From Prorocentrum cordatum (Eukaryota), in the NCBI GenBank assembly GCA_963575745.1, contig CAUYUJ010000281.1, positions 186,001 to 250,000 on the forward strand: DNA of 64,000 bases, read 5' to 3'. The notes under the pieces were generated by a model that searched no databases, was not told the origin of the DNA, and worked only from the letters and a program-made list of their open reading frames with translations. Position 1 is the stretch's first letter, and each line of letters begins with the position of its first letter. This document shows, one piece after another, positions 7,401 to 57,358 of this stretch. The position numbers and the translations under genes were made by a program.

Positions 7401-10400
7401 GCAGCGCGTTTGCGAGGAGGAGGCAAGGCGCCCTTGCCGCCCTTCCCACGGCCAGCGCCCGTCTCCTGCGAGGGGAAGGTCGCCACGAGATCGAACTGCT
7501 CGACCAGCGACGCGGGGACCTCCTCGCCGTGGGCATCATCGGCCATACCGCGGAAGCGAGAGGCAACTGGAAACTGCGGTGTGGGGGCCCAGCTCCCACG
7601 GTAGAGGCACACGAGAAAGACTGCCAGGCACAAGGGCCTTGCTCGCCGCGGGCCAGCGGTGTCCGTGGTTGCCAATGCGGGCTCGGCCCGCAGCAGCATG
7701 GGACTTGAGCCAAAATGGCTACGGAGGAGGAGGAGGAGGAGGAGGAGGAGGAGGAGGAGGAGGAGGAGGAGGAGGAGGAGGAGGAGGAGGAGGAGGAGGA
7801 GGAGGAGGAGGAGGAGGAGTAAGAAGGAGTAGTAAGGAGGATGAGGAGGAGGAGGAGGAGGAGGAGGAGGAGGAGGAGGACGCCGAGGGGCCCGCCTGTC
7901 GAACGCGCCGGGGTCGCCCGGCGCCCCGATGGTCATCAGGCCCCGCAGGCGCAGGCCGCCCGCACAGGCGCGGGCGACGTGCGCCGCGAGCGCCGGCGCC
8001 TCTTCGGGGGGGACGCCGTTCTTGGAGGCCTCGCCGCTGGTGTCCACCTGGCGGATGCCGGGAGCCCTGAGCCCCAGAGTGTGCGGCCGTCTCTCGGGGG
8101 CTCACTCCTCGCTTCCCCAGACATGATCGCGTCGTGACAGAAATCGGGACGGGATCTTGCCACCAGTTTTCGGCCTCGGGGAAGCCCTCGCCGGGCCCCC
8201 GGGACCGTCAACAAACGATTCAGGATGAAAAACCGGCCTCGGGGAAAGGGTCTGGACTTCCACAGACGCCGTCCTGAAAAAATCAGGACATCGCATGTCT
8301 GGGTCCGCAACCCTGCGCCGTCCCTCCGCCGCCTTGCCGCCAGCTGCCGCTGGCGGGGGCGGCCTCGTCCTACTTCCGCCGCCCTCCGCCGCTTCTCCCG
8401 CCGCCCTCCGCCGAGGAAGAGACGACGACTCCTTCGATCATCCTTGGCGAGGCCCTTTCTGGAACGCCTCACCTGAGCGACGAGCAGGGTCAGGGGAGAG
8501 CGCGCGCTCCGCTACTCGCGGAGCAGCTGCCCGCAGATGTCGGCGACTCCAAAGGGTGTGGCTTGCAAAGGGTGTGGTTGACAACCGGCACCCCGGGGAG
8601 CATCCTGGGGGGCATCCCGGGGGGCGGGCGGGGGCCTCGATGGAGTTCTCCCGCGCCCCGGGGAGGCCAAACCAGGGCAGCGTCGTGCCCCCCAAGCCCC
8701 AACGGTGCCGATCGCAAACCACACCCCGGCGTAACCATACCCTGTGCAGTCGCCGAAAACGGCCTGGGTCCGCCGCGGGGGGGGGCATACGATCTCCACT
8801 GCATCGGGGCAGACATGTGGTTTCCAGACGTCTGCGAGTAGGCACTTGACGTCTTGTGCTTCGAACGCGCCAGGACACGCTCGGTGTCCAACTGAGCGAC
8901 GCGCAATGATAGGGCACCCCCTGTCTTGGAGGCCTCGCCGCTGACCCCCCGCTTGCAGGGTCAGGCGAACGCATATGCGGCCAGTTTGCCACTCAGATGC
9001 CGATCTGAGCGACGAACCCGAAGATCCATCGCACCTAAAAGATCAGCACGGAAGTGTTCTGCAATTTTCGGCCTCTGGGGGCCTTCGCCGGGCCGCAGGA
9101 CAGACAGTCATAAGACGACTCTGGATGAAGAGCCGGTCCCTGGGAAAATGTGGGAACCTCTGGAGGCCACGTACGGAAACATGTCAAGACATCGGATCTC
9201 TGGAGAAGAGACGGGCCTCACGTGCGATGACATAGCGTCATTATGCCGCGGCTTGCGCGACCGCCAGCGTGGCGCGCCACATTGGAGATGAGGGCGCTGA
9301 CGCGCGGCCTCACGCGGACAGCTCAGGCGCGAATGCCGCCGCAATCGACCCCATTTTCTGCAGACGCCCACATGTTTTCCCCAACGATCGCCCACGTGCA
9401 TTGGAGGCCCTGTCGCTGGGGTCCGCCTGCTTTTTCTCCCCGCTCGCCCGCGGGCACATCTCGCCAGGGCGGCGAGGTCAGATTCCGAAGGCGGGCCCTG
9501 AGATCCGACGTCCCGAGGAGACACCTGCAGCATCGACAGAAACTATGCCAGAGCTCCCTGGAGCCCATCTCTCCGCAAAAACGCGACGCGGGGATCTCGG
9601 GGTCGGCGGCACGGCGAGAGGTCAGATCCGGAGGTGGAGTGGGGCGGAGGAAGGCGGTGGCAGCAGTGCAGCAGCGCGGGGGGGTGGGGAGGACGGGAGG
9701 GGGGGGGGGGCGTGCGGCGGGGCAGAGGGGATGTCATGGCGTCCACCTGCACGTAGGCGCCCAGGGGCTCCACGCCGTCGACCCCCCAGCCTGCGGGCGG
9801 CGCGGGCACCGGGGAGCGGCGCGAGGGGAGGAGGGCGGGCGGTCCTCCAGGAGGGCTCCCTGCCTCCGAGGAGCCCTCCCACCGTCTGAGAAGCCTCCCT
9901 TCAGAAGCGCCTACGGCGGGGCCTCCCAGATGGGCTCGGCCCCGCCGTAGAAGCTTCTGAAGGGGAGGCGGGGGGCCCTCCCGAAAGACCGCCCGACCCT
10001 GCTCCCCTCGCGCTGCTCCGTTGCCCGCACCCGCAGGCCTAGCTCCTGCGCCGCCGCGGCCAGCTTGTCCGCCAGCTTGACAGAGCTCACCGTCTCCACC
10101 GCTACCAGGTTTGGCACTCCAGCAAGCAAGGCGCGCACCTTGTTGGACTGCAGCTTGCCGATGAAGTGCCAGCGCACAGCCGCAGGAACCAGCGGCGCCT
10201 TGCCGAGCAGCTCCTGGACGTAGTTCTCCCCGAAGACCACCTGCCCCGCGGCATGAGCAGCGCCGATGGCCTCTGCCGATTTCGTCTTCGAGACCGCCAC
10301 CAGGCTCACCTCCCGGCCCGCGGCCGCGCCCTGGATGCGACCCAGCACTGCCCGCAGCCCCGACGCCACCTCGGGGACCTACTGACCCGGGTCAATCCAG

Positions 10401-37981: not shown

Positions 37982-38205
37982 AGTACTTAACATACTTACT
38001 ACGGTAAGTTAAGTACTTAGTAAGTAGTTAGCGGACTTAGCTAAGTGCTTACTCAGTCATTACTAAGTGGCCCACTTAGTAATGACTTAGTAAGTACTTA
38101 GCTATCCACTTATAACCAGTTAGCTAAGTGCTTAGCGCACTTAGCTAACCACTTATAACCGCTTATAGCTAGTTTGCTAAGTAGGTTATAAGTGACTTAG
38201 CGGTT
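37982..38205. repeat. Left subterminal repeat region (CTAAGT/ACTTAG units)
   Basis: Repeated (C/G)ACTTAG(T/C)AA and CTAAGTG units in both orientations. Confidence 0.85.
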
Positions 38206-38859
38206 ACATTGCACTTGTTATCCAAGGGCCATGCACAGGGAAAAAAGGTAAATCCACGTCTTGAAAGAGCTGAGTTTGTTCGTTGAGCGCTGCAGCGCTA
38301 CAAATTTTGCATTTTGATTTGGAGTCGGTGTCCTGGATTTTTGCTTTAAATATGAGAGGCGCTGCAGCGCTGCCTTCGGATTTATATGAACATGAAGCGC
38401 TGCGTGCGCTGAAGATGAAGCGCTGCAGCGCTGAATGTTGAGTTAAATGCATGTTTTCTAGTTGCACGTTGTTCGGATCTTCATTTTCGCCCAGCTCCGT
38501 TTGCAAGGAATTTGAATGCACATGTCAATTATGTTTTGTTGTATTCGTTCTTTTTCAATGGTCGCATTGAGCGCTGCAGCGCTCCAAATTTGATAGCACG
38601 TATGTTACTTTGCGCTGCAGCGCAAAAAAATGGTTGTCGTCGTGATGTCGCATCGCGCTGCAGCGCGTGCGCGCTCGTGCTTCATGGGCCTCGGGCTGCA
38701 GCCCAGATCAACATATTTGCTCGCAAGTTGCATGTCCATGCAAGTCGATGTTCACGCGCACGCCGCGCGACAGCTTGTCTCAAGCTGCGGCCGCGCGCCG
38801 CATCCGCCGTCGCGCCCGCGGGCTCGCACGTTGCATTCGGCGCTATATATAGCGCTGGC

Positions 38860-41770
38860 ATGGCGCTGCAGGCGCGTCAGGAGGAGCAGATCTTGCAGTA
38901 CATCGAGGAAAGCATTTCCTCGGGGAGGTTGGCATCGGGGTGGGATCAACTGAAGGAGTTCCTGCTGGCGGAGGGGCTAGCGTATTACCAGCAGGTCCCA
39001 CCGAACCAGATGGGCATCGACATTCGGAACCGCAGCGGTTCGTTAGTGAACCCTGCGCGGGCTCACAATTTAGGCGCGAAGATTTGCGCCCAGGGCTTCG
39101 TCTTGGCCAAGACGGCTGCAGCCACTGCCTTCGAGGCCCCGCAGGGGGCGCAGTTGGAAGAGACCGCGATGGCGAACGACCGCCTTTCGCGGCTCAGCGG
39201 GGGTCGGTGCCCCCCGCTGGACTCATTGCGGTATACGTCAGTGGGCGGCTCCCACACGAACGTCTTCCTCCGCTGCGTGCTGGCCAAGGCGCCGACCACA
39301 GTGAAGGCGCTGGCAGACTCTCGGGACAACATCGACTCCGAAAAGCTGTGCGCGTTGCATCCGCAACTTGCGACGGCAGTCAAAAAGGGCCCGACGTGGT
39401 TGATCATCAAGCACGCGGTGGCCAAAGTCAAGGGCCTCAAGAACTTCGTGCAGAGGGCTTTGAACGCCGACGTCAGGGAGGCGGTTCACGAGACCGAGAT
39501 CATTCGGTCAGGCTGCAGCCTATCCCCACTATAGTATATAGCGGTATGTAGTAAGGGCCAGGATGATGCACGAGGAGGGTGATGAGTGGGAGCGCGTTGG
39601 GGGGGAGGTGAGAACGAGGAGCGGGAGCATTATATCTTACAGTGCTGCAGCACTTGATCGGCTCGGCGCTTGCTGCAGGCAGGTGGGCGGATGCTCTTGG
39701 CACACAGCCTCGCTGAGGGTTCCAGCAAGCCCGATTGGCGCGACATCGCCGAGCAAGCGGGCCACGCGAACCCACCTTGCAAGGCGTGGATCGCTGACTT
39801 GTGCAAGTTTGTTGAGCTCGGGCCACAAAACGGAGAACTTCTCCGTGAAATAGATGAAGCCCTCAAGACCTTCACGAATGTGGACGTCTCGGGGCAAACT
39901 TTGATGTGCGGCTCTGAATTCTGGCGCAAGTTGAATTCGATTAAATGGGGGAAGCACCAGGAGTCGCACCCGCATGTCGTAGCGGCGCTCGTGAAGGCCA
40001 ACTATTCAGGCGAGCACGTGGTGGATAGCATGTGCAGGACCATCCATAAGCTTGTCGGCGCCCCCTTGTAGTGACATGCGCTGCAGCGCATCTATGCATT
40101 GCGCTGCATTGTTAGAACTGCGTGCCCACCCCTCCCCCCTCCCCCACACACACACGCACGCACCGTTACATTGCTTTATTCCCAAACGCAATCGCTGAAG
40201 CGATGTGCGGATCAAGGCAAACGAGATCGTCCACGTCGCGTCCCGCAAGGCGGACGTGGCTGCGGCCGACAATCTCATGGCCGACGCAAGGTCGCTCGTG
40301 AAGAGGTTGGATATCGGAGCGGAGCAGGGCTTCTTGCACATCACAAAGTTGGATGTCCGCTGTGCCATGTACCTGGTGAAGAAGCGAGCGCCAGGAGACC
40401 GCGCTTTCGGATGCGTAGCAGATATAGCACAGGTATCTTCTCACGCCACCTTTCGTGTGCTCCTTGTTTCCCCCCCTCCCTGCTTTTCGCCATTCAATGT
40501 CGCTGCAGCGACCCTCCAGAGAGGTCTTCCTCCATGAGCTCGGGGAGCCAGCCCAGCTGCAGATGAAGAGCTTGGGGATCGAGTTCGGCAAGGCGGTGCA
40601 GACCGACAAGCAAGGCGATGGCGCACCCGAGTTCCCAGCGAGCGCCGATGCAGACGCGCCGCGCGCGGCAGCGTCGTCGGCCGCTGAGTTGAAGAGCAAC
40701 GTCTTCCGCATGCGGCGTGCAGGGTTCGACGTGGGGAAGCACATCGTCCAGAAGAAGGAGGTGGATGACGTCTTCGAGGTGCTCTCCATCTCGGAGAATG
40801 GGATCACCGCTCAGAAGAAGTTGCACGGCGACCTGGTGGGCGAAGAGATCTCCATTGCGTGGCTGCAGCCACCCCGCCGCCCGTGCAGGGAGCAGGTAGG
40901 GGGGGGGAGGAGGTAGTAACTGCGATATTGTATTTCCTGTACTTAAGTTGCAATGGGTTGGTCGATGCGCTGCAGCGCACGGAGCAGTTAGCCGAGCGGG
41001 CGGATTGAAGTAAACATATTGCTCGAGAATTACAAGTTGACGTCCAGGGCGCAGGAGCAGTTGCCGTTCACGAAGGAGCACTTGCCGCCAGCCCACGAGG
41101 GTTGGGCGATGGACGCGTTCAAGGGGGCATGCAACATGGCGCTGCGGCTCCAAGCGCTGAAGTACCAGGCGAACATTTTGCACTTGGAGATCCTGCAGGA
41201 CCCACCTGCCGTGCGCTGCAAGCGAGCGTTCAAAGTGGGTGAGCTCGTCAGACTTGTGCTTCCGCAATCGTCCGCGCCCCCCTCCGACGACGCCGCGCTG
41301 CAGCGCTGCGCTGAGCACGAGGTAGCGAGGATTTCGGGGCACGTCAGGCCGTAGCGACGAGGTCAGTGACGTTACCGACTGCGCGCCATGTAGCTCCACG
41401 CGGTGGGAGTGGTCGCATTTCAGCCTCGTCCACGCGGGTCAGCACGGGCTGCGTTGCGGAGAGCATCTCGTTGGGGAAGGTTGGCCTCTACGAGTTCTTC
41501 GTGGGCCCGCAGTTCGCAGGGCCCCCCGCTGAGGGGTCGCGGGGCCCCGACGCCTTTGTCAGCCCCTTCTGGGTGGTGGCAAAGTCCGACTCAGAGCCCA
41601 ACATGGAGCTCCGAAAGGAGACCGTGACGTTCGGGACAGGCGTCAACAAGGTGCAGGTGGGGGTGCCCCAGATGCATAACACTTGCGCCCTGTCCGCGGG
41701 CGACTTCCTGGTGGTGAAGCCGTGGCCGCGGCTGCAGCCGCGGCCAGCCAAGAAGCTCAGGACGGCCTGA
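38860..41770 (+). CDS. Cargo gene 1: ParB/Srx-like N-terminus, SET-like C-terminus; exons ~38860-39501, 39691-40041, 40211-40432, 40524-40853, 41004-~41246, ~41400-41770
   Basis: Successive high-GC3 ORFs separated by palindrome-containing spacers. Motifs RNRSG..AHNLGAKICAQGF, VGGSHTNVFLR, and AVRCKRAFKVGEL..PFWVV..PNM..HNTCALSAGDFLV. The last junction is unresolved and domain names are tentative. Confidence 0.65.
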
Positions 41771-42267
41771 GCTGGCGATATAGAGGGACCACGCGGGAGG
41801 ATGAGGCAGGAGGGAGGGGTGATGCGGAGGAGGAGGAGGAGGAGGCAGGGTAAGGTTTGGCATAGGGAGGAGGATGAGGGGGCTTAAGGAGCGGCGAGCG
41901 CACATGACGGCACCGAGCGTGGCCCTCCGATTGGTGTAAACAGTGTGCGGGTTGGTGCGAAGTGCGATACTTGCCGCGGCGCTGCAGCGCGCGGAACGAT
42001 TCGTTGCGCCAGCATCGTCGCTGCAGCGACTGTACAATATTGGTGCTGACATCAGCCTTTCCCACAGACATGCCGCTGCAGCGGCTTCGTCATCACTGTT
42101 GTGCTCGATGTGATCGTTGCTCTTCGCTTCATCTTTCACATGCGCTGCAGCGCACCTCATCATGAGCACCTCGTCCGCGCACATGTTGCCTCATCACTCC
42201 ATCGCAGCAATTTTGGCGCTGAAGTGCGACCGCGCTCGGGCTGCAGCCTCGGCGCGCCGCGCGCGCG

Positions 42268-43032
42268 ATGACGACGATCAAGCGCGACTGCGTCGTGCTG
42301 CACGACAACCGTACGGGGCGCGAGCTGGTCGCGGCCGTCGAGGTCATCGGAGACCGCGAGTGTATCACCGTGACCACCGCAGGTTGGAGCAAGTGGGCGT
42401 GCGGCAAGGCTCAGGGCTTGCGAGGCACGATGTTCCCAACGTGGCTGAAAAATCAGCGCGCCGCGTCGTCGGGGCCAACGGCGCCGACGACGCTCTTCGC
42501 TGCAGCGGAGCCAGGCCGCCGCCCGACCACGCGGTCCGGCCGCGCCAGTCGCCAGGTTCCAGTGGACAAGTGCTTCAAGACAGTGCAGCTGCCGCCGTTT
42601 GGCGATGCTGAGGCAACAGAGCTGCAGATTGTCATTCCCCCACCTCATAGGGGGGGGAAGGATAAGCTGCAGGTGGTGCTGCACGAGAAGGGCGTAGAGT
42701 ACATCAAGGCCAAATTGCTTCAGGAGGCGGCGGAGGCGGCAGAGGCGAGCACGGTGCTGAAGCGCCCGCGGCGCCACGAGACCGACGTTCCTTGCGGCGC
42801 CCGCATCTATTGGGTGCAGCGGCTCCAAGCTTGGCGGGCCGTCCGCACAGACTGCGGTTGCAGCAGGACGGCCTTGTTCCGCACAAACCGCGGCTGCAGC
42901 AAGGATGACGCTGAAGCGGCCGCGGCGAAGTGGTGCACCGCCGAACTCAAGGATTGCGAAGCGGATGAGCTCCAGGAGATGGAAGCGGAGGCGGAGGGCG
43001 ATGCGGAGGAGGAGGAGGCCGACTCGGACTGA
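42268..43032 (+). CDS. Cargo gene 2: 254-aa protein with AP2-like C-terminal DNA-binding motif and acidic tail
   Basis: Clean ATG-to-stop ORF. IYWVQRLQAWRAV...ALFR...DAEAAAAKW resembles the AP2 three-strand + helix pattern. Confidence 0.65.
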   Translation: MTTIKRDCVVLHDNRTGRELVAAVEVIGDRECITVTTAGWSKWACGKAQGLRGTMFPTWLKNQRAASSGPTAPTTLFAAAEPGRRPTTRSGRASRQVPVDKCFKTVQLPPFGDAEATELQIVIPPPHRGGKDKLQVVLHEKGVEYIKAKLLQEAAEAAEASTVLKRPRRHETDVPCGARIYWVQRLQAWRAVRTDCGCSRTALFRTNRGCSKDDAEAAAAKWCTAELKDCEADELQEMEAEAEGDAEEEEADSD

Positions 43033-43515
43033 GCTGCGGCGCGCTCGGTCGACCGCATCGCTGGGGCGTGCGATCACGGTCGGCAGTGCGATTGAGAATG
43101 GCAGCGAGGAGGACGAGCACGAGGACGAGGAGAAGGAAGAGGAGGATTGGGATAATAATTGCGGATTGTTGGTGGATCCCCCCAATGTTCGCTACTGTTG
43201 GTGTCATTGCGAATCGTTGGTATGATCAAGCGTGCTGCAGCACGACGACACTACGATCAAGTGTGCCTCTCACGCGTTGCCGCCGTCGATGTGTGACCTC
43301 ACGGCGCTGCAGCGCTGACTTACGTGTGTTTCGTGCTGCAGCGCTGTCGTTCGGGTGTATGGCGTGCCGATATCAGATTTTTGCGTCGCGCTGCAGCGCT
43401 GACTTACATTTTGTGTGTCTGGCGTGTTGATGTAGCGCTTCGATCGCGCTTGCAGCCCGCATGTTCGCTTTATGTTATTGCATGTGGTTCGCAGCCACTT
43501 GTGATCAGAACATCA

Positions 43516-43869
43516 ATGGCTGCCAACATGAGTGCAGCGACGCCGCCATGGCGGCTTCCCTCGGAGCCAGTGCCGCCGCCGAAGGCGAAGTCCGCTGCAT
43601 CGGATGCGACATATGCGGCTACTCCCCCTCCTCCGCCGCCGCCGCCGCCACCGCCGCCTCCGACGTCGACGAGGACCGCGGCTGCAGCCGCCAGTGATGT
43701 GCCAGCCCCGCGCGCGGCTGCAGCCGCGCGCAAGCGCGATGCTGATACCAAGGTTGGCATGTGGAAGCTTGTGTGCGACATGATTCGGGAAGCGCTTCAG
43801 CGCGGGGACCGCGAGGCAGCGTTTGCGCTGGCAGTCCAATACCACGTCGCGAAGAAGCCGCGGAAGTGA
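43516..43869 (+). CDS. Cargo gene 3: small Pro/Ala-rich protein
   Basis: MAANMSAATPPWRLP...VGMWKLVCDMIREALQRGDREAAFALAVQYHVAKKPRK*. Confidence 0.5.
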   Translation: MAANMSAATPPWRLPSEPVPPPKAKSAASDATYAATPPPPPPPPPPPPPTSTRTAAAAASDVPAPRAAAAARKRDADTKVGMWKLVCDMIREALQRGDREAAFALAVQYHVAKKPRK

Positions 43870-44968
43870 CGGGCGCGCGGCGCGCGCGCGGTCAGTGCTG
43901 CAGCACCACTGTTTCAGTCGGATACAGCATCGCGACGGCGGCGACGGCGACAGAGACAACGACGACGGCGTTAAAGACGACGTAATTCAGAGCAGTACAT
44001 GCAGGAGAAGAAGGTGGAGGGAGGATGATGATGAGGAGGAGGAGGGTGATCAGGAGGACGACGACATTGAGGACGACGTTCTGGAACGCCCTCATTTTCA
44101 CAGGTTCCCACCGCTCGCTGCCAGCACCTCGGAGCAGGGGAAGGGGGGGCAGGATGATGATGATGATGAGGAGGAGGAGGAGGAGGAGGAGAAGGAGGCC
44201 GAGGACGAGGAGTATGACGAGGAGGAGGGGGAGGAAGACAACCAGTTGGCACCCATGCCCCGCCCCCCCGATCCTTCTGCCTATTCCTGCCTCCGCATAC
44301 TCCCTCTCCTCCTCCTCCTCCTCCTCCTCCTCCTCCTCCTCCTCCTCCTCATCCTCCCTCTCATTCTCCTACTCCTCCTTCTCCTCCTCCTTCTCCTCCT
44401 CCTCCCTCTCCTTCTTCTCCTCCTCATCAGTGTCCTCCTCCTCCTCCTCCTCCTCCTTCTCCTGCCCCCCCTCCTCCCCCCCCTCCTCCTCTCCCTCCAA
44501 TCCTCCTCCTCCCCCTCATCCTCCTCCCCCTCCTCCTCCTATCCTGAGGGGGCAGCCCTGGGGAGGTCAATCCAGTCGTTGGCCTTCGGAGGTTCAGTTG
44601 GGGGTGATGTTACTTTGCGGGGTGATGTTACTTTGGGGGGTCAGTCGATTGGTTAGCAGGGGTCCGTCGTCGTCAGCGTCGTCGCCATCGTATTCGTCGT
44701 TGGCGCCGCCGCTGTTTTTGTTCCGTGCAGCTGCAGCTGCAGCTTCGCGCGCTGCAGCGCCCGCGCGCCGCCCTGCGGCGCCCACGCGCCCGAGCTCAGC
44801 TTCAGCTGCAGTGATGGGACTGGTTTCCACCACCACTATACCATATGTTGGAGAAGGAGGAGGAGGAGAAAGAAGAGGAGGAGGAGGACCTCTCCCTCCA
44901 ACTTATGGTACTGGTGGTGAAAACCAAGCCCATCATGCAGCTTGGCGAGCTGCAGCCTCGCTGCAGCG

Positions 44969-45605
44969 ATGGCGCACCTCGACTACGACGAGGACTTCGA
45001 GGAGTTCGACAGCGACGACGGCGGCGCGCTGCTCGCGGCCGCGGCCACGGCGCGGCCGCGGCCTCCCTCGGCGCCGCCGCCAGGCGCGCTGCTGGCCAAG
45101 GCGCGGCCGCGGCCGTCGCCGTACGGCAGCGTCGGCCGCGCCTTGGCCAAGGGCAAGGACAAGGACAAGGAAGGACAAGGACAAGGGCGGCGGCCCACCT
45201 TGCGCCTCGGGCAAGGGCAAGGACAAGGACAAGGACGTCGGCGGCCCACCTTGCAAGGGCATGGGCAAGGGCAAGGACAAGGACAAGGACGTCGGCGGCC
45301 CACCTTGCAAGGGCAAGGGCAAGGACAAGGACAAGGACGACGGCGGCCCTTGCAAGGGCAAGGGCAAGGACAAGAGCAAGGGCGGCAAACTTGTCCAAGG
45401 GCAAGGGCAAGGGCAAGGGCGGCGGGGCGGCTGGTTCAACAGGGCGCAGCGGCTCTGCGAGCTGCTGCTGGCGGGCGAGTACGCCGCCGCCGCCGCCCTG
45501 GCCGAGGAGTACTACGCTGGCCCAGCAGAGGTCTGGGTCGGCCAGGGCGGCGGCGGCGGCGAGGAGGCCGCCGAGGAGGCGCTGCAGGCGCCGTGGGGCG
45601 CCTGA
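44969..45605 (+). CDS. Cargo gene 4: GK/DK-repeat protein with frameshifts in the repeat tract (assembly error or pseudogene)
   Basis: MAHLDYDEDFEEFDSDD..KGKDKDK..(KG)n..GGWFNRAQRLCELLLAGEYAAAAALAEEYY. Needs frame changes near 45170 and 45390. Confidence 0.5.
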
Positions 45606-46829
45606 GGAGGCGCAGGCGCCGAGGAGGGCGCGCGGGCGCCTGAGGAGGCGCTGCAGGCGCCGAGGGCTGCGCGCAGGCGCTGCAGGCGCCGAGGGCTGCG
45701 CGCAGGCGCTGCAGGCGCTGAGGAGAGGCGCTGCAGGCGCCTGAGGGAGGCGCCGCGCAGGCGCCAACATGAGAGCCGCGGCAGGCCGGGCCGCCGCGGA
45801 GCATCCAACTGTATGGGCGACGGAGAGGGTGGACTATAGTAGAGGTAGAGGTAGACAGGGGGAGAGGGTGGACTATAGTAGAGGTAGACAGGGGGGAGAC
45901 GTAATATACATAGGGAATGCGAGGGGGACGATGGAGACGCAGCGTGGGGGTGGAGTGAAGACACATTGGAGAGAGACGGTAGACAGGATGCCCGCTGCAG
46001 CGGGTATCCACTCTCCCGTGAGCGAGGGGGACAACGAACGCATAGTGATAGGATACATGCTGTAGCAACCCAACATGTAAGATCAATGGGAGCAATGGGG
46101 GGGGGGGTGGATTGGATCAGTTCGCGAGCATAGCCTGCCGACGCATGCATGTGTTTTAGGCCAGGTTATATTTCGTGCGCCAGATCGCGTGGTGCGCCCG
46201 CGCTGTCGCCCAGAAAGGCGCTCCGATATCCTCATCACATCTATCTGCCATCGTCGACGTTCACATCCTGATCCACTGACATTTTTTTTGTATGGACTGA
46301 TGTGCCAGGGGTCGGCCTTGGATTGGCCAGGAAAGTTTGGGGGCACTTGGGGGGGTCCTGGGGCACTTCAGATGGCAAACAGTCTCGCATCGCATCGCCC
46401 TTCGCCACTCTCCCTGCTCCCCTTCAGCACAGTTCGTTGCGCCGCCGAGTAGCTCCCCCCATGGCCTCCTGGCAGCCTCACCAGCTCCCATCAGCCTTGT
46501 CCTCAGCAGTCTCGAGCCATCGCGACGCTGCTGCAGCAGAGCCGTGAGCGTAAATCTTTGCAGTTGACAGCGGTGTCGGCATCGTCAACCTCGTCGCGAC
46601 GCTGCTGCAGCAGCGCCGCGTGATGTACTTCGCGCCTCTCTTAGTTTCACTCCCACCTCGAAATCAGCAGTGTGGACAGTGTTCTGGGACTGCGTGGGTG
46701 GGCGTTGGGGTGGGCTGGAGTGCTGGATGTTGGCATCAGGATGGCTGATCTGAGGTCGAACGGGAGCTTCGGGTGAAGCGATCTGAGAGCGTCGGTGCCC
46801 CTCTGCAGAGGTGATGCTGTCTGACAGCG

Positions 46830-46980
46830 GCGTGTCTGTTCAATAGCCCCCTCTATTGAACAGCCACGCCCGTGTCTGTTCAATAGCCCCCTCTATTGAA
46901 CATGCCATGTTCAATAGCCCCCTCTATTGAACAGCCACGCCCGTGTCTGTTCAATAGCCCCCTCTATTGAACAGACACGC
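46830..46980. repeat. Four tandem hairpin units GTTCAATAG-CCCCCT-CTATTGAAC (~40-bp period)
   Basis: Direct reading. Confidence 0.9.
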
Positions 46981-47802
46981 CTCTGTCGATGTCCCAGCTG
47001 CCTTCGAGGCTCCCAGATCGCTTCGGTATTTGCTCCTGATCACACTTCGCGCATCTCCTGAATCCGTCCCGCGCCCTCCTCGGACACCTTCCGTGTCCCT
47101 CCTGTGTCTGCCCGCCCGCCCGCTCCCGAGCTCCCGTGTATACCTATCCGTCTCCCGCGTCTCTCCCTCGTCTCTCCCGTGCCCCTTCCGTGTCTCCACA
47201 TGCTTTCCGTGCGCTCCCGCCCGTGTCCCTCCGCACCGCTTCCGCGTCCGTCCGCCCGCTCGCCCCCGAACTCCCGTGTCCCTCCCGTGTCTCTTCCGTG
47301 CCCCCCCCCCCCGTGTTTCTCCCATGTCCCTCCCACCCCTCCGTGTCTTTCGCACCGTCCCTTCCGTGTTCCTCAAATGATCATGCATCCCCCCCCGTGT
47401 CCTGCCCGCCCGCCCGCCCGCGCTCGTGTCCTTCCCTCCCGTGTCTCCTCGCATCTCCCCCCGCCCCCCCCCCCCCCCCGTGTCCCTCATTATCTCCCTC
47501 CTCTCCTTTCCATCACTCTATATCTCTCTCCCTATTGCCCACTACCATGCGTTCCATCATGGTGCGCATGCATAGCGCTGCAGCGCTTCATGTTACTTTG
47601 TGACGATGATTTCTGCTGAGCGCTGCAGCGCTCACGTGTGTTCCTTAATTGCATGCGATCGTTGCGCTGCAGCGCATCTGTACTGTTGTGGCCTCTCTTC
47701 CACCTCAGCAGCCGAGTGCTTCAGCTCTCGCAGTGTGGGAGGCCCTCCCTCGCGCTTCCCCTCGGAGCGTCCGCGCACCCCCTCGCCCTCGCGGAGGGCA
47801 TC

Positions 47803-49664
47803 ATGTCTGCCGCGGCTGCGGCCACACCCATCAACCACATCCTGGATAACCTGGACAGCTGCGACGCCTTCTTCGCATCGCAGATCGGCGTCATCGCCGC
47901 CGACGCGATGGCGCAGAGCCAGTCCGCCTTGTCCATGAGCGTGCAGCTGCAGCTTCACAACTTGGGGACGATCGGGGCTGCCCAAGCAGCTACCCTGCAT
48001 AATCGAATCACCGCGTCGGGCTTCGCGGACAGCCACAAGGCGCGCCTCAGCGCCGTGCTGGCCGCGCGCGTGGGCACGGCGACGCCCGCGCTCCAGATGC
48101 GCGTGCAGACGCTCGCGTCAGGGCGGCGCTATCCATCGTGCTGTGCACATCGGACCGCCGAAGTGTTATTCACATGTATGGTTTAATTGTTTGTTCTGTA
48201 CTTTATGTATGTTACCATGTTCATTTTTCAAATGTACTTATGTTAGCATGCTGCAGCATGCCTGCGTCGATTCGTAGGCTGGTGGGCTTTACCATGCAGG
48301 ACTGGGGTTTATTTCGCGACCCCAGCCAGAGCATCGTCGCGAAGGTGCGCGCGTTGATCAAACGTTGCGGTGCCATCGGCTTGACGGTTCCGAGCGAGAA
48401 CACGCTGAAAGAGTTGGCGGCGTTGATGGCATGCGCCCATCTTCCAGACGCAAACCCTGGGCAGCTCTACGGGATCGTGACGGAGATGAAGGTTTGGGAT
48501 TCGGCGGGAACGCCTAACGCAGACGCATCATATCGCACTGACTGCAGCCAATGCGATGCGGCGCGTCAGCGTTAGGGTTTCCCGACGAGTCGCCCTTTAC
48601 AGGGTCAGTTCTTGGCGAGCCGCAGGGGCGCGACGGGGCAAGCGGCGACAGTGACTTGGAATTTCCCAGCAGATCCTCGGCAGCTCCCTCAGCACATCTT
48701 CGACGCGGCGTACACCGATGCGGACCCGCCGATCGATGTGACGCGCGACCTCGCCAACGTGGTATCGCATCTACGAGGCTGCTGCCACCCCGTCATGCGC
48801 TGCAGCGCTGATTGTTCTGGATGTCTTGGGTGCTTCGGTGAGCTCGGTCCTTTAGGTCCACCTCGCATAGAGCATGATAGGTTTCATGCTACGCGTGCGC
48901 CGCTGAAGCGGCCTGCGGGTCTCAACGCCATCAAGGCTCGCGTGCCTCTCAGGCTGACCAACAAGGGCTTGCGGGCTGCCGCCCCACCGCATCAGCCGAG
49001 CACTGCCATTGTGCCATGGACACCATCGGGGTCACCCTCCGTGCCGCCTGCAGCGCCAATGCAACCCATGGACGCGATGGCCGTGATGCAGCAAATGCTG
49101 GCAGCGTTTGCGCCACCGCCATCGCCGCCCAACGAGCTGCAGCTGCAGCTCTTCCCGCGCCGCCCTGCGGCGCCCACGGCGAGCCCCCCCGCGAGTCCCC
49201 CCGCGATTGGTGATTCGCCAGCTGGGCCAGCATTGTCAGCGGCGGCGCCAGATGCTGCTGCAGCAGCGCCAACGCCGCCAAACGAAGATGCTGCTGCAGC
49301 AGCAGACGGAGACGAGGATGCTGTGCTGCAGGCGATCGAGACCTTGGCTGCGGGCAGCGCGAAAGGCGAGCTGCCTCGCAAGGGCAAGGGCAAGGGCAAG
49401 GGCAAGAAGGGCAAGGGCAAGAGCGCGATCAAGGGCAAGAGCAAGACAGGCGCTGGCAAGGGCAAGACGGCGGCCAAGGGCACGGCCAAACCGAAGGCCA
49501 AGGGCAAAGGGAAGGCCAAAGCCAAGGCCAAGGCCAAGCCCAAGGGCAAGGCGGCAGCCAAACGGGGCCAAATGGCACTCGGGTGCAGCAAATGCCGCTA
49601 CCTGCCGAATGGCTGCGGCACGTGCCGCGACCCGAACTTCACTGGCCGTCGCGGCAAGCCGTGA
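47803..49664 (+). CDS. Cargo gene 5: helical N-terminus, Pro/Ala linker, Lys-rich tract, C-terminal GCSKCR..GCGTC Zn-binding-like motif; exons 47803-48122, 48278-48491, 48603-49664 (possible extra in-frame intron ~48744-48911)
   Basis: Phase-consistent GC-AG and GT-AG introns with AG|G acceptors. Confidence 0.7.
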
Positions 49665-50406
49665 GCGCGCAACGGGCACTGTCGGCATATGGAGGTGAGG
49701 ATGAGGATTATGAGGGCGAGGAGGAGGATGGGTAGGATGATGAGGAGGATGAGCATGTGGAGGAGAAGGAATGAGGAGGATGGTGGGGATTAGTGCGAGG
49801 TTGGATGGAACGCTGGCCGATGATATGAACGGTAGTGGCGATGGTCTTGCCTGGCGGTCGCGCGGCTCGCACGGACGACGAGGAGGATGAAAGTCAAATA
49901 TGTTGACGGGTTCTCTTGGATGCGGGCGCTGCAGCGCTGGCGCCTTTGTGGTCAACGTTTACATCGCCATCATGATCACGATGCAGCGCTGCAGCGCTCG
50001 CTTTCCTGGATGGTGGCGTAGATAGTGCGCGCTGTTGTGTTCCGATGCAGCGCTGCAGCGCCTGTCAGACTTGTGGTGCCGTTGTAGCGTTGGCGCGTTT
50101 GTGAGTGTGCAGTTGCAGCCGCGGTGCCCATGTATTGCGTGACGTGCTCGTCTTGAGTGCCAGTCGTTCCTCGTCGATACGCGCTGCAGCGCCATCATTC
50201 GTGATGTCGAGCGTTGTCTCCCGCATGGTTGTTGCCAAGTCACGCGCTGCAGCGCTGTGATTCGCTCATGTTGCGCGTTGCCGATGGCATGCCCTCCTCC
50301 CCCCCTCCTCCTCCTCCTCCTCACTTGGCTCGCGCGTCGCAGTCGCCATCGTTCGCTGCAGCGGGTGCTGGCAACGGACCTCCTCCGCCTCCTCACTGGG
50401 CTCGCA

Positions 50407-50837
50407 ATGGCGGCGCGCCGCTGCGACAAGCCGTTCGAAGCGCAAGCGCGCGCCGACCGTCGCGACGAGTTGCGCGAGGCCCGCGCGAGAGCGACGGCGA
50501 CTGCTACAGCAGAGGTGAAGGAGGCGCGGAAGAACGCCAGGAAAGCGGAGAAGCAGGTGCAGATCCGCACCGCGGAGCTGCAGGTGGATGAGGAGGCGGA
50601 TGAGAAGGAGGACGGTGGGGTTCATGAGTGTGGCAGGCTACTCCCCCGCTGCAGCGGGGGAGAAGGACGACAGGGGGGATGATCAGGAGGAGGTGGAAGG
50701 CGATGATGTGGGAGGATGAGGAGTATGAGTAGCAGGGTCGGGGTCAGATGGACATCGCCGCTTCGGACGTGGCCAACCAGAAACTCAACGAGGCGTTGAC
50801 CTCGCTGCGGAACGCCAAGAAGATGAAGGTGACCTGA
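50407..50837 (+). CDS. Cargo gene 6: small basic coiled-coil protein; exons 50407-50583, 50736-50837
   Basis: MAARRCDKPFEAQARADRRDELREAR...AELQ|GRGQMDIAASDVANQKLNEALTSLRNAKKMKVT*. CAG|GT...CAG|G intron. Confidence 0.5.
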
Positions 50838-51518
50838 GTGAGGTCGGCCTCGGCGACCGCCTGCTGAAGCATGCTGGTTCGATTGATTGGTAAAGGCTGG
50901 AGGGAACGTGGTTGAGCGTGTTGTTTGAGTTGCGCTGCAGCGCTTCTCCGTGGACCACGGTTGAAAGTTTGCGCGCGGATCATGATGTGTTAATGTGTTG
51001 CGCTGCAGCGCAGTTTCGCTTGCAGTTTCTCGTTGGATGGTGATGTGGCGGATGATGAGGGCGAGTGATATTGATGCTGTTGACGATGAAGGTGATGGTG
51101 ACGGGGAGGATGAAGGGACGGGAGACGGATGATGAGGAGGATGGGTAGGTTGAGGAGGAGGATGGGGAGGATGAGGGGGCGCATGAGGCGGAGGAGGAGG
51201 AGGAGGAGGAGGAAGAGGAGGAGGAGGAGGTATAGGAGGGGGAGGAAGAGGAGGAGGACGAGGGGGATGGCGAGCAGGATGGAGGAGGAGGAGGACGTTC
51301 GCGCTGCAGCGCGTCAGATTGTCATCATTGAACGTTAGCGGCGCTGTAGCGCCATGTGCTCCCAGACTGTTGCTTGGCAGTTAGCGCTGCAGCGCGCATT
51401 TGGTTGCTCTCCACGCGGTGCAGCCTCATTTCCATCCGTAGTCGCCGTGGCCCATAGCGGAGGGGCCCCTCCGCGCGCGCGCAGCGACGGAGGCAAGCTT
51501 GCCTCGGGAACGCGCGCG

Positions 51519-52027
51519 ATGGCGGCAGAGGACGACCGCCCAGCGAAGCTGCGGCGGCTGTCCCGCCTTCGCGCGGAACTGCCATTCATGCATTGTAATG
51601 CGATGGCGCAATTCCTGGCGTCCGTTAAGCGAGACGGAACCCCCGAATTGGGATCCCGACGCCAGGATATCAGAGACGCTCGGGAGCTCATGGTCAGTGA
51701 GAACACGCCGCGCGGCAAGCTCCACCAGAACATGGTAGTCGGGCAGCACACGGTGGAGATCTGCAGTCCAGCAGCAATGCTGTGGTATTGCAGCGCCCTC
51801 CCCGCGATGCAGCCTCTGTGGCAGCGGGCGCTGGAGCTGCCACGCCCGTGGCACATCATCATTTACGGCGATGAAATAGGCGCTGGCAACGCGCTGGCGC
51901 ACGTGCAGAACCGCAAGTCGTGGGGCATCTACTGGACGATCGCGGAATTCGGCCCGCAGGCGCTTTCGTCGGAGGACTTTCGCGATAGCGTTGCTGCAGC
52001 AACGATATATGCGGGGGGGGAGGGGGG

Positions 52028-52105
<78 letters not shown>

Positions 52106-53989
52106 CTGCAGCGCCAGTTGTGCTGCGATTTGTTCGCAGGATGCGTGGTTCCAGCTCGCGACGATGCGGGCCAAGACCGCGAACGACATCCAGCCGCGCG
52201 GACTGACGATGCTACTGGACGCAATCCTCGCGCAGTTCTGGCCTGATCAGGGGCACAACTTCAGCGCAGGCATCAGCTTGCGGCTGCGCCCCGACGGCGC
52301 GACGGAGCTCATCCAGATGGACCTCGGAATTTACATTCAGCCGCTGCAGCGGTCGCCGCATAGCACCCAAGATTAGTTAGCATACATGTGCACATGTATA
52401 TATCCATTACGCCTTCTTGCGTCGCTGCAGCGGCTCTGTCGGATCGCGGACGAGGATGCAATGCACCGCTTGATCGGAATGAAAGGTTCGTCAGGAATCA
52501 AACCATGTTTTATGTGCCGCAACGTGTTCTTGAAGGGCGAAGTTCGGGATATAGTTGCTTCTGATGCGACGGGTGTCGCTGTTCACCACTCGGAACCAGA
52601 TGCGTCGCGGCTGCAGCCGATGACGGCGCCGTTGCTCGATGCCATCTGCAACAGATTGATCGAAGGGGTCAACATCATGAACAAGGGCGAGTTCCAGGAG
52701 TTGGAGCGCCGACTTGGCTGGAACTGGGACCCCCATTTGCCTGAGCGGGTTCGGAAACTCAAGCCGCTCGAGACAGTCATGTTTGATTGGATGCATTGTA
52801 TTTTCGTCAACGGTACATATAACATTCTGGTGTTCCAAATGTTTCGAAGGTTGAAGGGTTACTGGGCGCGCGCAGACGCATATTTCCAGGACTGGTCGTT
52901 TCCAGGGTGCCACTCCATCTCCCCCGACACGTGCGCGATCTTCGGCGAGAAGCGCGCGAGGTCCCACGTTGACAGCAAGCATTTCAAGTGTACCGCCAGC
53001 GAGGGGCTCACAACCATGCAAGTATCATTGCATGCTTCGCGCCCCCGCCAGACCAATAATACATGCGCTGCAGCGCACGTGAATTTCTGTAGGATATGTA
53101 CTGCACCCCTCTTGTTCGGACATGCGTTCGCGCGGGCGGATTGACGTGTTTCTTCAGGGAGGTGGCTAGCGACGCTGCAGCGCTTGCAGTCCGATCTGCT
53201 TGCGCAGTGTTCGAGGCGCACACGATCGTTGTGGAAGAAATCCTACGAGTATCCAGGCGTCAGGCAGACGCGGATAAGCTGCAGGCTGCGGTTAACATGT
53301 TTTTGCTGTCATACAGCAGCGTCTTTGGCAAGGAAACGATGTCGCAGAAGTTCCATTACCTGCGCCACTTCGCCAACTACGTGAGGCGTTGGGGCCATGT
53401 GGCGCTGCCGTCGTGCTGGGTTTTGGAGCGCAAGCACAAGACCAGCAAGCGCTTTGCGAACGCTCTTCAGGTGGGGGCTGCAGCCTCCAGCGGCTGGGAC
53501 GCCAATGTCCTGAAGAGCGTCACCGAGCGGCACCTGTGGCAGCTCATGGATGGCGGCACCTTTAAGGTTAACTGCCTGGTTAACGCCACCAGGCCGTCCA
53601 AGGCCATCTCGCGCGAACTGCTGCAGCAGTTCGGGCCTGCGGACTTTGTTACGTCCGCTGCAGCGCGGTGCCGCTACCACGACGTCAAATACGGCGACGT
53701 CGTGCTGTTGGAGGACGGAGGAGGGGAACACATTGCGGCCGAGGTGTTGAAACACCTCTCCTTCACCAAGAACGGCCACTACTATGGCTTGAGCTTGGTC
53801 CTGCCCTACTTCTTCAAGGAGAAGCTGCACCCGCGCGCCTCCGCGCACGTGCTTGGCGGCGATGCCGACGCCTTTTGGGCGCACACGGCGAGCATCGTGT
53901 GCTCGCTCGCGTGGGCGCCGCGCGAGGGCGGCGGCATCCGAGCGGCGCGCCCGATATGGTCGCAGCCGCGGTGGTGCGCTTTAGCCTAA
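51519..53989 (+). CDS. CMC-type (EnSpm/Mirage/Plavaka-like) DDE transposase; exons 51519-51974, 52140-52334, 52443-53023, 53140-53989 (693 aa)
   Basis: IIIYGDE; IADEDAMHRLIGMKGSSGIKPCFMC; FDWMHCIFVNG; KFHYLRHF..RRWG..SCWVLERKHK. This motif order is characteristic of CMC transposases. Confidence 0.82.
52029..52102 (+). repeat. (AG)n microsatellite in transposase intron 1 (GA-AG, 51975-52139)
   Basis: Direct reading. Confidence 0.9.
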
Positions 53990-55667
53990 AACGTGGATTC
54001 CTTACTGGCGCTGCAGCGCACTTTTTTACATTGCTAAATGCTTCGGTGCTGCAGCACCTGAACGTTGCATGGTCGACGACTCCTCTTCTCCGCCTTGAAA
54101 ACGTGGATTCCTTCTGCATAGCGCACCTTTTTCATTGACACTTCGGTGCTGCAGCACCTGAACAGTGCATGGTCGCCGATTCCTCTTCTCCGCCTCGTTC
54201 CTCCTCCTCCTCTTGCGCTGCAGCGCTAATGTCGTTGATCAGTGGTGCGGTCGTTCAAACTCCTCCTTCCCCGCATCCTCCCCCTTCTCCCCCTCCTCCT
54301 CCTGCTCCTACTGCTGCTCCTCCTCCTCATCTTGCTCCCCCTCCCCCTTCTCCTCTCCCCCCCCTCCTCTGACGAGGGGGGGGGGTGGGGGACGAGGGGG
54401 GGAGGGTGGAGGAGGGGGAGGGGGAGGAGGAGGAGGAGGAGGAGGAGGAGGAGGAGGAGGAGGAGGAGGAGCATGAGGAGGAGGAAAACGACGAGATAGC
54501 TCAGAGCGAGAGGAGGATGGGGAGGAGGAGGAAAACGACGAGATAGCTCAGAGCGAGAGGCGGCTGGGGAGGAGGGGGGGCGGGGGGGGGGAGGAGGAGG
54601 AGGAGGAGGACGAGGAGGAGGAGGAGGAGGAGGAGGAGGAGGGGAGGAGGAGGAGGAGGAGGAAGAGGGGAGGAGGAGGAGGAGGAGGAGGAGGAGAGAG
54701 AGAGTAGACTAGGAGGAGGAGGAGGAGGAGGAGGAGGATGAGGAGGGGATGGGGGGAGGAGGAGGACGATGGAGGAGCGGAGGGTTAGGAGGACGAGGAG
54801 GAGGATGAGGAGGAGGAGGACGAGGGAGGAGTATATGATGATGACGAGAGGAGGAGGGCGAGAGGAGGAGGCGGAGAGGAGGAGGAGGAGGAGGAGGAGG
54901 AGGAGGAGGAGGAGGAGGAGGAGGAGGAGGAGGAGGAGAGGGAGGAGGAGGAGGAGGAGGAGGATAGAAGGAGGGGGGAGGAGGAGACGCCGCCCGCGCG
55001 CGTGCGGCTTACAGGCCGCGCGGGGAGCGCGCCCTCCCTTTTCCCTTTGCTTCGCGGCTCGGGATCGCCATCGAAAAACATATCAAGACATGTTTTTCGA
55101 TGGCGACCCCGAGCCATGGGGCAGTCTCCTCTCGGAGGACCCCTCGGGGATGTCGGGGATCCTCCTCGACATCCCCGAGGGGTGGGACGGGCTCGGCAGC
55201 CATCGGCCCGTCGCACGTCGTCGTCCCCCAACCCTCTGGGTTGTGGACGACGGCTACGTGCGGTGGGCCGCTCTGGCTGCCGAGCGGCGCGCAGGGCCCC
55301 CCCCGCCGCCCGCGCCAGCGGCAATGCCGCTGGAGATGGCGGCGCAGAGCGCGGCGCAGGCGAACTTCGCCTGCGCCGCGCTCAGCCGCGCCAGGCTGCC
55401 GCTCGACGCGGCGGCCCTGCAGGGCCGCCGCGTCGAGCGGCCGTCTTGGGCTGAGGCGCGCCCGTCGCCGCCTCCGCCGCCGCCTCCCCCTTTCCTCCTC
55501 CTCCTCATCCTCCTCCCCGTCCTCCTCCTACTCCTCCTCCTCCTCGACATCTCCTCCTCCTTCTCCTCCTCCTCCTCCTCCTTCTCCTCCTCCTCCTCTC
55601 TCCCCCTCCTCTTCCTCCTCCTCCTCCTCCTCCTCTTCCTCCTCCTCCTTCTCCTTCTCAGAGTCCG

Positions 55668-57258
<1,591 letters not shown>

Positions 57259-57358
57259 NNNNNNNNNNNNNNNNNNNNNNNNNNNNNNNNNNNNNNNNNN
57301 NNNNNNNNNNNNNNNNNNNNNNNNNNNNNNNNNNNNNNNNNNNNNNNNNNNNNNNNNN
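57259..57358. other. Assembly gap (100 N)
   Basis: Run of N. Confidence 1.

Follow-up and report, generated by a model that had tools for sequence, protein, structure and literature searches.

Candidate AT-GG introns in two genes of a Prorocentrum cordatum DNA transposon

The stretch of DNA from the bloom-forming red-tide alga Prorocentrum cordatum analyzed here (the window; 64,000 nucleotides (nt), NCBI GenBank assembly GCA_963575745.1, contig CAUYUJ010000281.1, positions 186,001 to 250,000) includes two genes, A and B, of what is probably a large DNA transposon. They are interrupted five times by intervals that all open with AT, close with CGG and are followed by AT. The best explanation, to which we assign a probability of about 0.6 on the basis of sequence comparison, is that these intervals are real introns of the two genes, removed precisely at |AT...GG|. 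Their removal would restore open frames, including that of the strand carrying an invariant aspartate (Asp) of a RAG1/Transib-like transposase, the predicted product of gene B. The most likely agent would be the dinoflagellate spliceosome, which tolerates GT, GC and GA donors and would here process one more class of ends. The transcript would then run from ...GGAATTTAC to ATCGCGGAC... and from ...ATGCAAGT to ATTGACGTG....

The five interruptions had been proposed, with their restored phase, in an earlier note made from the letters alone. All of them were recovered and joining their flanks gives the open frames quoted there (ETEI|MLLAH, MCRT|IKANE, EEIS|IEVNI, DLGIY|IADEDA and TMQV|LTCF for introns 1 to 5). 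The neighboring introns, which the same note had called ordinary, are indeed canonical for dinoflagellates: three are GT..AG|G (40433-40523, 48117-48277 and 48492-48602) and one is GA..AG|G (51975-52139). The features of genes A and B are the following:

38860..41770, plus strand: gene A, function unassigned; exons 38860-39501, 39691-40041, 40211-40432, 40524-40853 and 41004-41240 plus a 3' part; stop at 41768-41770
39502..39690, plus strand: AT-GG intron 1 (gene A), 189 nt, phase 0, atc|ATTCGG..GGGCGG|atgc; 3' motif GKGCGGAT
40042..40210, plus strand: AT-GG intron 2 (gene A), 169 nt, phase 0, acc|ATCCAT..GTGCGG|atca; 3' motif GKGCGGAT
40433..40523, plus strand: canonical GT..AG|G intron of gene A, from sequence and frames; palindrome at 40502
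40854..41003, plus strand: AT-GG intron 3 (gene A), 150 nt, phase 0, tcc|ATTGCG..GGGCGG|attg; 3' motif GKGCGGAT
51519..53989, plus strand: gene B, putative RAG1/Transib-like DDE transposase with a BAH-like C-terminal domain; exons 51519-51974, 52140-52334, 52443-53023 and 53140-53989
51975..52139, plus strand: canonical GA..AG|GA intron of gene B, positive control of the junction scan
52335..52442, plus strand: AT-GG intron 4 (gene B), 108 nt, phase 0, tac|ATTCAG..TGTCGG|atcg
53024..53139, plus strand: AT-GG intron 5 (gene B), 116 nt, phase 2, agt|ATCATT..GGGCGG|attg

Homology and selection at the gene B junctions

The spliced gene B model is an open frame of 692 codons. Aligned with MAFFT to 37 homologues of at least 600 amino acids, it is gapless across all three gene B junctions. 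A metagenome scan, with a smaller alignment as query, gave 50 loci (L001-L050). Six of these relatives (L022, L024, L029, L030, L031 and L034) are uninterrupted at the DNA level over profile positions 1-685. The alignment to intronless homologues that had been suggested as a check thus gives no extra residues at the two AT-GG junctions of gene B.

The junctions were scored by a scan that ignores splice motifs: a profile of 36 distant homologues was applied to every in-frame, stop-free pair of 5' and 3' cuts located at most 45 nt from the proposed sites. For the control intron 51975-52139 (1506 variants), the top class contains GA..AG|GA. For intron 5 (1605 variants), AT..GG|AT is on top; the next class trails by 3.9 bits and the best canonical pair by 11.1 bits. 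For intron 4 (1474 variants), AT..GG|AT and its sequence-equivalent shifts are on top and the best canonical pair, which ends in AG|C, lies 7.6 bits below. As a control of the method, 21 other junctions were scored in 19 loci, several of which are near-duplicates of one another. G(T/C/A)..AG is on top in 18 of them (one a tie) and a canonical site lies 0.4, 1.5 and 1.8 bits below the top in the remaining three. The scan therefore finds canonical sites where they exist.

Locus L001 (72% identity, GC content 0.60) carries introns at the same three positions as gene B of the window. Its intron at the control position reads gag|GACCCC..CCGCAG|gagg. At the position of intron 4 it reads tat|ATGCGG..TGGAGG|attg (103 nt; best canonical pair 4.6 bits lower) and at that of intron 5 (4592-4707) tgt|ATCATG..GTGCGG|attg (116 nt; best canonical pair 13.2 bits lower). 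In L002 (44% identity, GC content 0.64) the position of intron 4 is the only one occupied, by ttt|ATCCAT..CCGCGG|gtag, with the best canonical pair 8.7 bits lower. AT-GG is the sole terminal pair within 1, 2, 3 or 5 bits of the best at all five homology-tested junctions. The AT..GG ends in diverged relatives, together with purifying selection on the flanking exons, lend comparative support to the earlier suggestion of an unusual splice-site class.

Between the window and L001, the ratio of nonsynonymous to synonymous substitutions (dN/dS) is 0.24, 0.09 and 0.20 for exons 1, 3 and 4 (148, 162 and 270 codons), at dS values of 1.2-2.2, which are saturated. These low ratios, with introns in both elements, imply that the joined product was under selection at a time when the introns were already there, suggesting that the split gene B has stayed functional. 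Read-through is excluded since intron 5 measures 116 nt in both elements and intron 4, 108 and 103 nt, with in-frame stops. In this pair of elements, conservation is limited to the first ~18 and last 10-20 nt of the introns, their middles having diverged. Could the intervals simply be retained, as small palindromic element insertions in dead gene copies? The element is multicopy with some damaged copies (L001 has a frameshift near 4494) and the intervals share palindromes with its non-coding parts. However, the window and L001, which share the intervals, show the low dN/dS on either side of them at dS above 1. Relatives with 72% and 44% protein identity have intervals at the same positions, and every exon frame is open in the window. 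Dead copies are accordingly a very improbable explanation.

Both gene B introns are also present in independent DNA contigs of run X1. Runs X1-X3 were compared with positions 38200-54300: X1 gave DNA contigs, X2 and X3 low-complexity matches only. A single joint in the run matches (43144/49712) was rejected as splice evidence as it lies between low-complexity stretches.

Ends of the introns, gene A and canonical alternatives

The class can be described from eight introns, the five of the window, two of L001 and one of L002. All have A at +1, T at +2 and G at both -2 and -1, and in all eight the last base of the upstream exon is C or T. Intron position -3 is C, and position -4 is G, in seven of the eight. 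The next exon starts with A in seven and with G in one, and its second base is always T. The consensus is Y|AT(Y)C ... G(G/T)GCGG|AT and lengths range from 103 to 260 nt. In seven of the eight, the next exon opens with a copy of the first 2-4 nt of the intron (AT..). The rule that the first intron base equals the first base of the next exon, proposed for both classes of introns, is therefore followed by those seven and broken by the L002 intron (AT..GG|GT).

On the plus strand of the element, the extended 3' motif GKGCGGAT has four matches, all of them 3' ends of introns (1, 2, 3 and 5). Over the whole window and both strands there are 11 matches for 6.6 expected. This placement, the top rank of AT..GG|AT at introns 4 and 5 and the sole shared end pair at the five tested junctions are three signs that the pattern goes beyond chance. 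The window DNA is eukaryotic and GC-rich, and a scan with the pattern AT..[GT]CGG|AT returns 61 plus-strand and 59 minus-strand matches; in such DNA this pattern is not specific.

Gene A introns 1 to 3 are tied to the tested class by their shared GKGCGGAT 3' ends and by similar 5' ends, which are ATTC.G followed by the palindrome (compare intron 4) or ATCCAT (compare L002). They would thus behave like the two tested introns of gene B. NCBI holds P. cordatum protein models 96-99% identical to gene A. These near-identical paralogue models use canonical sites only and are mutually inconsistent at exactly introns 1, 2 and 3. For intron 3, four models offer three solutions (EEISIACGRIEVN, EEISIAWLQPPLNILL and EEISIARLQAQEQ). 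For intron 1, they use the canonical pair 39512 GC / 39682 AG|G, which adds IRSGGR and gives ETEIIRSGGRMLLAH.

In-frame, stop-free canonical pairs exist near every interruption, as the earlier note had cautioned. If such nearby G(T/C/A)..AG sites were used and the few added, lost or replaced residues tolerated, AT..GG would be an artefact of parsimony. The choice made by the NCBI models at intron 1 goes in this direction, as does the narrow deficit of the canonical option at L001 intron 4. However, the latter has no counterpart in the window, the best options for introns 4 and 5 carry the deficits given above, that for intron 4 ending in AG|C rather than AG|G, and none of the 37 homologues changes length at the gene B junctions. 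In addition, the paralogue models restricted to canonical sites conflict with one another and lose the ADE...KGSSG...C..C block, and the same scan recovers canonical sites elsewhere. We therefore consider the use of canonical sites unlikely. The caution loses much of its force for introns 4 and 5 but stands for gene A.

Several observations weigh against precise removal at AT and GG. To our knowledge, AT at +1/+2 with GG at -2/-1 matches no known spliceosomal pairing of first and last nucleotides, and neither a polypyrimidine tract nor a branch-site motif was seen in the eight introns. At intron 4, other non-canonical cuts that also take out 108 nt come to within 0.6-1 bit of the top. The L001 option just mentioned is an in-frame GA..AG|G pair only 4.6 bits worse, which deletes two residues. 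A T..G class equals AT..GG in score in L002. The five tested junctions come down to two intron positions, seen in two or three lineages; they count as two independent origins plus conservation rather than as five separate events. For gene A, two word-based searches (which returned P. cordatum paralogue models or nothing), a viral-contig scan and the ESM Atlas gave no distant homologue, and the GC..AG|G alternative for intron 1 is a plausible possibility. Finally, homology and selection are what point to precise removal from the transcript, and the runs matched the element as DNA contigs only.

Comparison with known introns and modes of removal

Three donors and a weak extended 5' site are described for the dinoflagellate spliceosome (10.1101/2020.10.14.339549), and the cited part of the P. 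cordatum genome paper reports annotation with tools modified for GT, GC and GA donors only (PMC10666404). The AT-GG introns resemble the standard dinoflagellate introns of the cited descriptions in being short, in lying side by side with them in the same genes and in containing internal palindromes or inverted repeats (PMC5032977, 10.1101/2020.10.14.339549). Moreover, the AT..|AT repeat found in seven of the eight parallels the standard GH..AG|GH. They differ by their AT/GG ends in place of GH/AG, by an upstream exon that does not end in AG and by the lack of a repeat in L002. None of the eight starts with GT, GC or GA, none ends in AG|G, and no G(T/C/A)..AG pair is on top at the five tested junctions. 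In Crypthecodinium, identically repeated intron boundaries are defined, in the part of the literature cited here, as a repeat of 2-9 bp at both splice sites containing GG or AGG (Mendez et al. 2015; PMC5032977). The repeat observed here is AT(N)(N), with neither GG nor AGG.

Introner elements of Amoebophrya and P. cordatum are defined by inverted repeats of 8-20 nt at most 30 nt from each end and by direct repeats of 3-5 nt. The boundary repeats of introns 1 to 5 are AT, ATC, ATTG, AT and AT, so that two of the five reach 3 nt. With the introns of Amoebophrya, as far as the cited part of their description goes (PMC7789003), the AT-GG introns share a dinoflagellate lineage, non-GT-AG ends, hairpin palindromes near the ends and short boundary repeats. 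The Amoebophrya introns of that description have no preferred end dinucleotides, in contrast to the recurrent AT-GG pair and extended 3' motif found here. The present introns also differ in having direct repeats of 3-5 nt in two of five cases and in occurring in a core dinoflagellate, within transposon genes and beside canonical introns. A family of introners made of near-identical copies was rejected: the eight introns share no sequence apart from palindromes of 12-17 nt and none has a further copy within the window. The introns could conceivably have arisen by insertion into an AT(NN) target, as the AT repeat parallels GH..AG|GH, which is attributed to introner-like target-site duplications in the cited part of 10.1101/2020.10.14.339549. 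The AT repeat is only short and L002 lacks it.

Two further kinds of unusual introns can be compared. U12-type introns of the AT-AC kind carry ATATCCTT at the 5' end, AC at the 3' end and a TCCTTAAC branch site close to the latter (consensus in PMC5032977). The AT start is common to both. A U12 assignment was rejected as none of the eight introns starts with ATATCC, none ends in AC and none has a TCCTTAAC-like branch site in its last 45 nt. According to the cited part of PMC7789003, alveolates lack the minor spliceosome. The nonconventional introns of euglenids have variable or non-canonical ends, and pairing of the intron ends is proposed to play a role in their removal. The AT-GG introns are similar in their non-canonical ends but unlike them in their fixed AT-GG pair and in an end pairing that is significant in some introns only and not specific to the class. 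A literature search gave no report of AT-GG introns, either in dinoflagellates or as a non-canonical splice class. Compared with the nearest described cases, the non-canonical introns of Amoebophrya, a parasitic dinoflagellate, and the repeated boundaries of Crypthecodinium, the novelty lies, with moderate confidence, in one fixed pair of ends with an extended 3' motif, in a core dinoflagellate and in transposon genes.

The palindrome GCTGCAGC is concentrated in the element: the interval 38.2-54.3 kb contains 73 of the 78 copies in the window, most of them within perfect palindromes 12-14 nt long. As had been noticed earlier, each AT-GG intron contains at least one copy (positions 39512, 39644, 40080, 40862, 40969, 52343, 52424 and 53067). 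In the modelled genes its density reaches 9.5 per kb in introns (eight of nine carry it) against 1.5 per kb in exons. Since three of the four canonical introns also contain GCTGCAGC, the palindromes are not specific to AT-GG introns but are a feature of the whole element. Copies lie near both ends of introns 1, 3 and 4, while introns 2 and 5 have a single central copy. A literature search on this palindrome in dinoflagellates returned primer sequences only. Palindromes also cluster upstream of each gene and occur in intergenic stretches and some exons. An enrichment, at 0.5-4 per kb, is also seen in relatives with a GC content near 50%; the palindromes were noted in L001 and L003-L026.

This arrangement raises the possibility of a non-spliceosomal removal, guided by palindromic hairpins (compare the Amoebophrya introner elements and euglenid introns) or carried out by an element-encoded factor. 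The pairable GCTGCAGC-type palindromes near both ends of introns 1, 3 and 4 would suit such an excision. Intron 4 is the strongest case: the z score of its end pairing is -3.1 in the window and -2.8 in L001, and the two elements have kept both palindromes as well as their distances from the ends. For the class as a whole, z scores range from -3.1 to +0.8, and pairing is no stronger than in the canonical introns of the family (mean z -0.8 versus -1.6; Mann-Whitney p = 0.57). Introns 2 and 5 show no end pairing, and the palindromes are also found in canonical introns, in intergenic stretches and in some exons. Element-assisted splicing, put forward in the earlier note, and structure-assisted splicing thus gain no specific support, and we regard such non-spliceosomal removal as improbable. 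Several canonical introns of L003-L028 show strong end pairing, with z down to -6.6. In intron 5 and its L001 counterpart (4592-4707), the 3' G(G/T)GCGG can pair with CCGCC or CCGCAC located ~40 nt into the intron, and one change on both sides, C-G of the window being A-T in L001, preserves this pairing (one instance, noted by eye). Ire1-type and bulge-helix-bulge sites were rejected because the junction sequences fit them inconsistently (by eye only).

Another route would be RNA editing, from AU to GU (or IU) at the 5' end and from GG to AG at the 3' end, which would present canonical sites to the spliceosome. Editing, including at intronic sites, is reported in the cited part of the P. cordatum genome paper (PMC10666404). 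It would nevertheless require two different edits at fixed positions in every intron and the sequence gives no pointer to them. We hold this route to be highly unlikely.

A tentative proposal, well short of even odds, is that the spliceosome genuinely recognizes AT-GG as a second class of intron ends across the Prorocentrum genome, beyond this transposon, and perhaps in other core dinoflagellates. If true, intron recognition would depend on something besides the GT and AG dinucleotides, and annotations limited to GT/GC/GA-AG would systematically mis-model genes with such introns. The known relaxation concerns the donor (GT, GC, GA); a recurrent AT-GG class would extend it to both ends of the intron. 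Public P. cordatum models of this transposon are mutually contradictory and probably wrong at these junctions, one of them losing the block with an invariant Asp. Should the class also occur in host genes, the gene catalogues of bloom-forming dinoflagellates would contain a systematic error. Both genome and RNA data are public for this core dinoflagellate, which makes the class directly testable.

The transposase, the element and its surroundings

The assignment of gene B is based on predicted structure. An exhaustive HMMER search with exon 3 retrieved 1020 relatives at E<=0.001. The last exon is 97% identical to an NCBI Prorocentrum cordatum protein (protein search), and three long relatives that were looked up (P0013, P0018 and P0022) all lie on short ENA/Logan contigs. 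Pfam returned nothing for the gene B exons nor for 36 homologues, and a profile search of the PDB sequences with the family was equally negative. An AlphaFold model of homologue P0018, built on 36 sequences, has a mean predicted local distance difference test (pLDDT) score of 92. With this model, Foldseek retrieved RAG1 at E 2.6e-9. VIA-align superposed it on RAG1 with a Z of 18.6 over 439 residues (root mean square deviation 5.0), on the amphioxus RAG-like transposase BbRAGL with 13.4 and on HzTransib with 13.1. Its C-terminal 125 residues match BAH domains with a Z of about 10. According to the model, the family has an RNase-H-like catalytic core with an insertion domain and, overall, the RAG1 core fold. 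D124, D225 and E517 are invariant across the 36 homologues and constitute a candidate acidic triad. The DLGIY|IADEDA junction of intron 4 lies three residues ahead of the invariant Asp of the ADE motif, so that the earlier wording, restoration of a catalytic strand, is reasonable. The predicted RAG1/Transib-like fold likewise agrees with the description of these genes as transposon genes.

Public models of gene B drop or garble the ADE block, and some skip the conserved ADE...KGSSG...C..C. The NCBI P. cordatum models that disagree for genes A and B are P0001-P0004, P0155, P0156, P0184, P0186, P0187 and P0191. UniRef calls some P. cordatum copies 'RNA-directed RNA polymerase', for which the fold gives no support. 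The position of the canonical intron 51975-52139 (profile 158) is common to many relatives (L003-L028), where nearly all introns are AG|G(T/C/A)...AG|G. The transposase is of separate interest as a member of a large RAG1/Transib-like family with a BAH-like domain, no Pfam match and 1020 environmental relatives (P0013-P0154, L001-L050).

Two further features belong to the element:

38289..54224, plus strand: palindrome-dense, multi-gene, transposon-like region with 73 of the 78 window copies of GCTGCAGC; genes A, C and B; ends undefined
47803..48761, plus strand: gene C, 5' part, with canonical GT..AG|G introns 48117-48277 and 48492-48602

A search for terminal inverted repeats of the element turned up low-complexity inverted repeats only. 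Transib-type heptamers are absent from its edges, the sole CAC[AT]GTG between 33 and 58.5 kb lying inside exon 1 of gene A. Membership of the Transib superfamily, which is marked by CACTGTG-type terminal inverted repeats and a 5-bp target duplication, was rejected on the basis of termini, as such repeats were not found and the ends of the element are undefined. The literature search gave nothing relevant on Transib in dinoflagellates.

Gene C exons are kept upstream of the transposase in L001 (289-743), L005, L006, L008, L015, L020, L030, L031 and L039. This conservation indicates that genes C and B form the conserved core of the element. Gene A was found in none of the 50 metagenome loci and has no Pfam match. 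Gene C (47803-49700), whose function is unassigned, has the same orientation as the transposase.

Outside the element, Pfam searches with 24 long open reading frames gave just a reverse transcriptase and weak low-complexity matches, which left no host gene for a test. Positions 38000-38230, immediately left of the first palindrome cluster, are occupied by AT-richer short repeats (ACTTAGTAAGT/TTAGCTAAGT-like) that could represent the element's left edge or a different repeat. Just past the transposase stop, a direct tandem repeat of ~105 nt (84% identity) spans 53988-54195, with the palindrome GGTGCTGCAGCACC in each unit. Further right, a tandem array with a unit of ~77 nt (56517-57258) runs into 100 N (57259-57358), an assembly gap. 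The reverse transcriptase belongs to a 1968-codon open frame on the minus strand (2029-7932; RVT_1, E 6e-9), a retroelement near the studied region.

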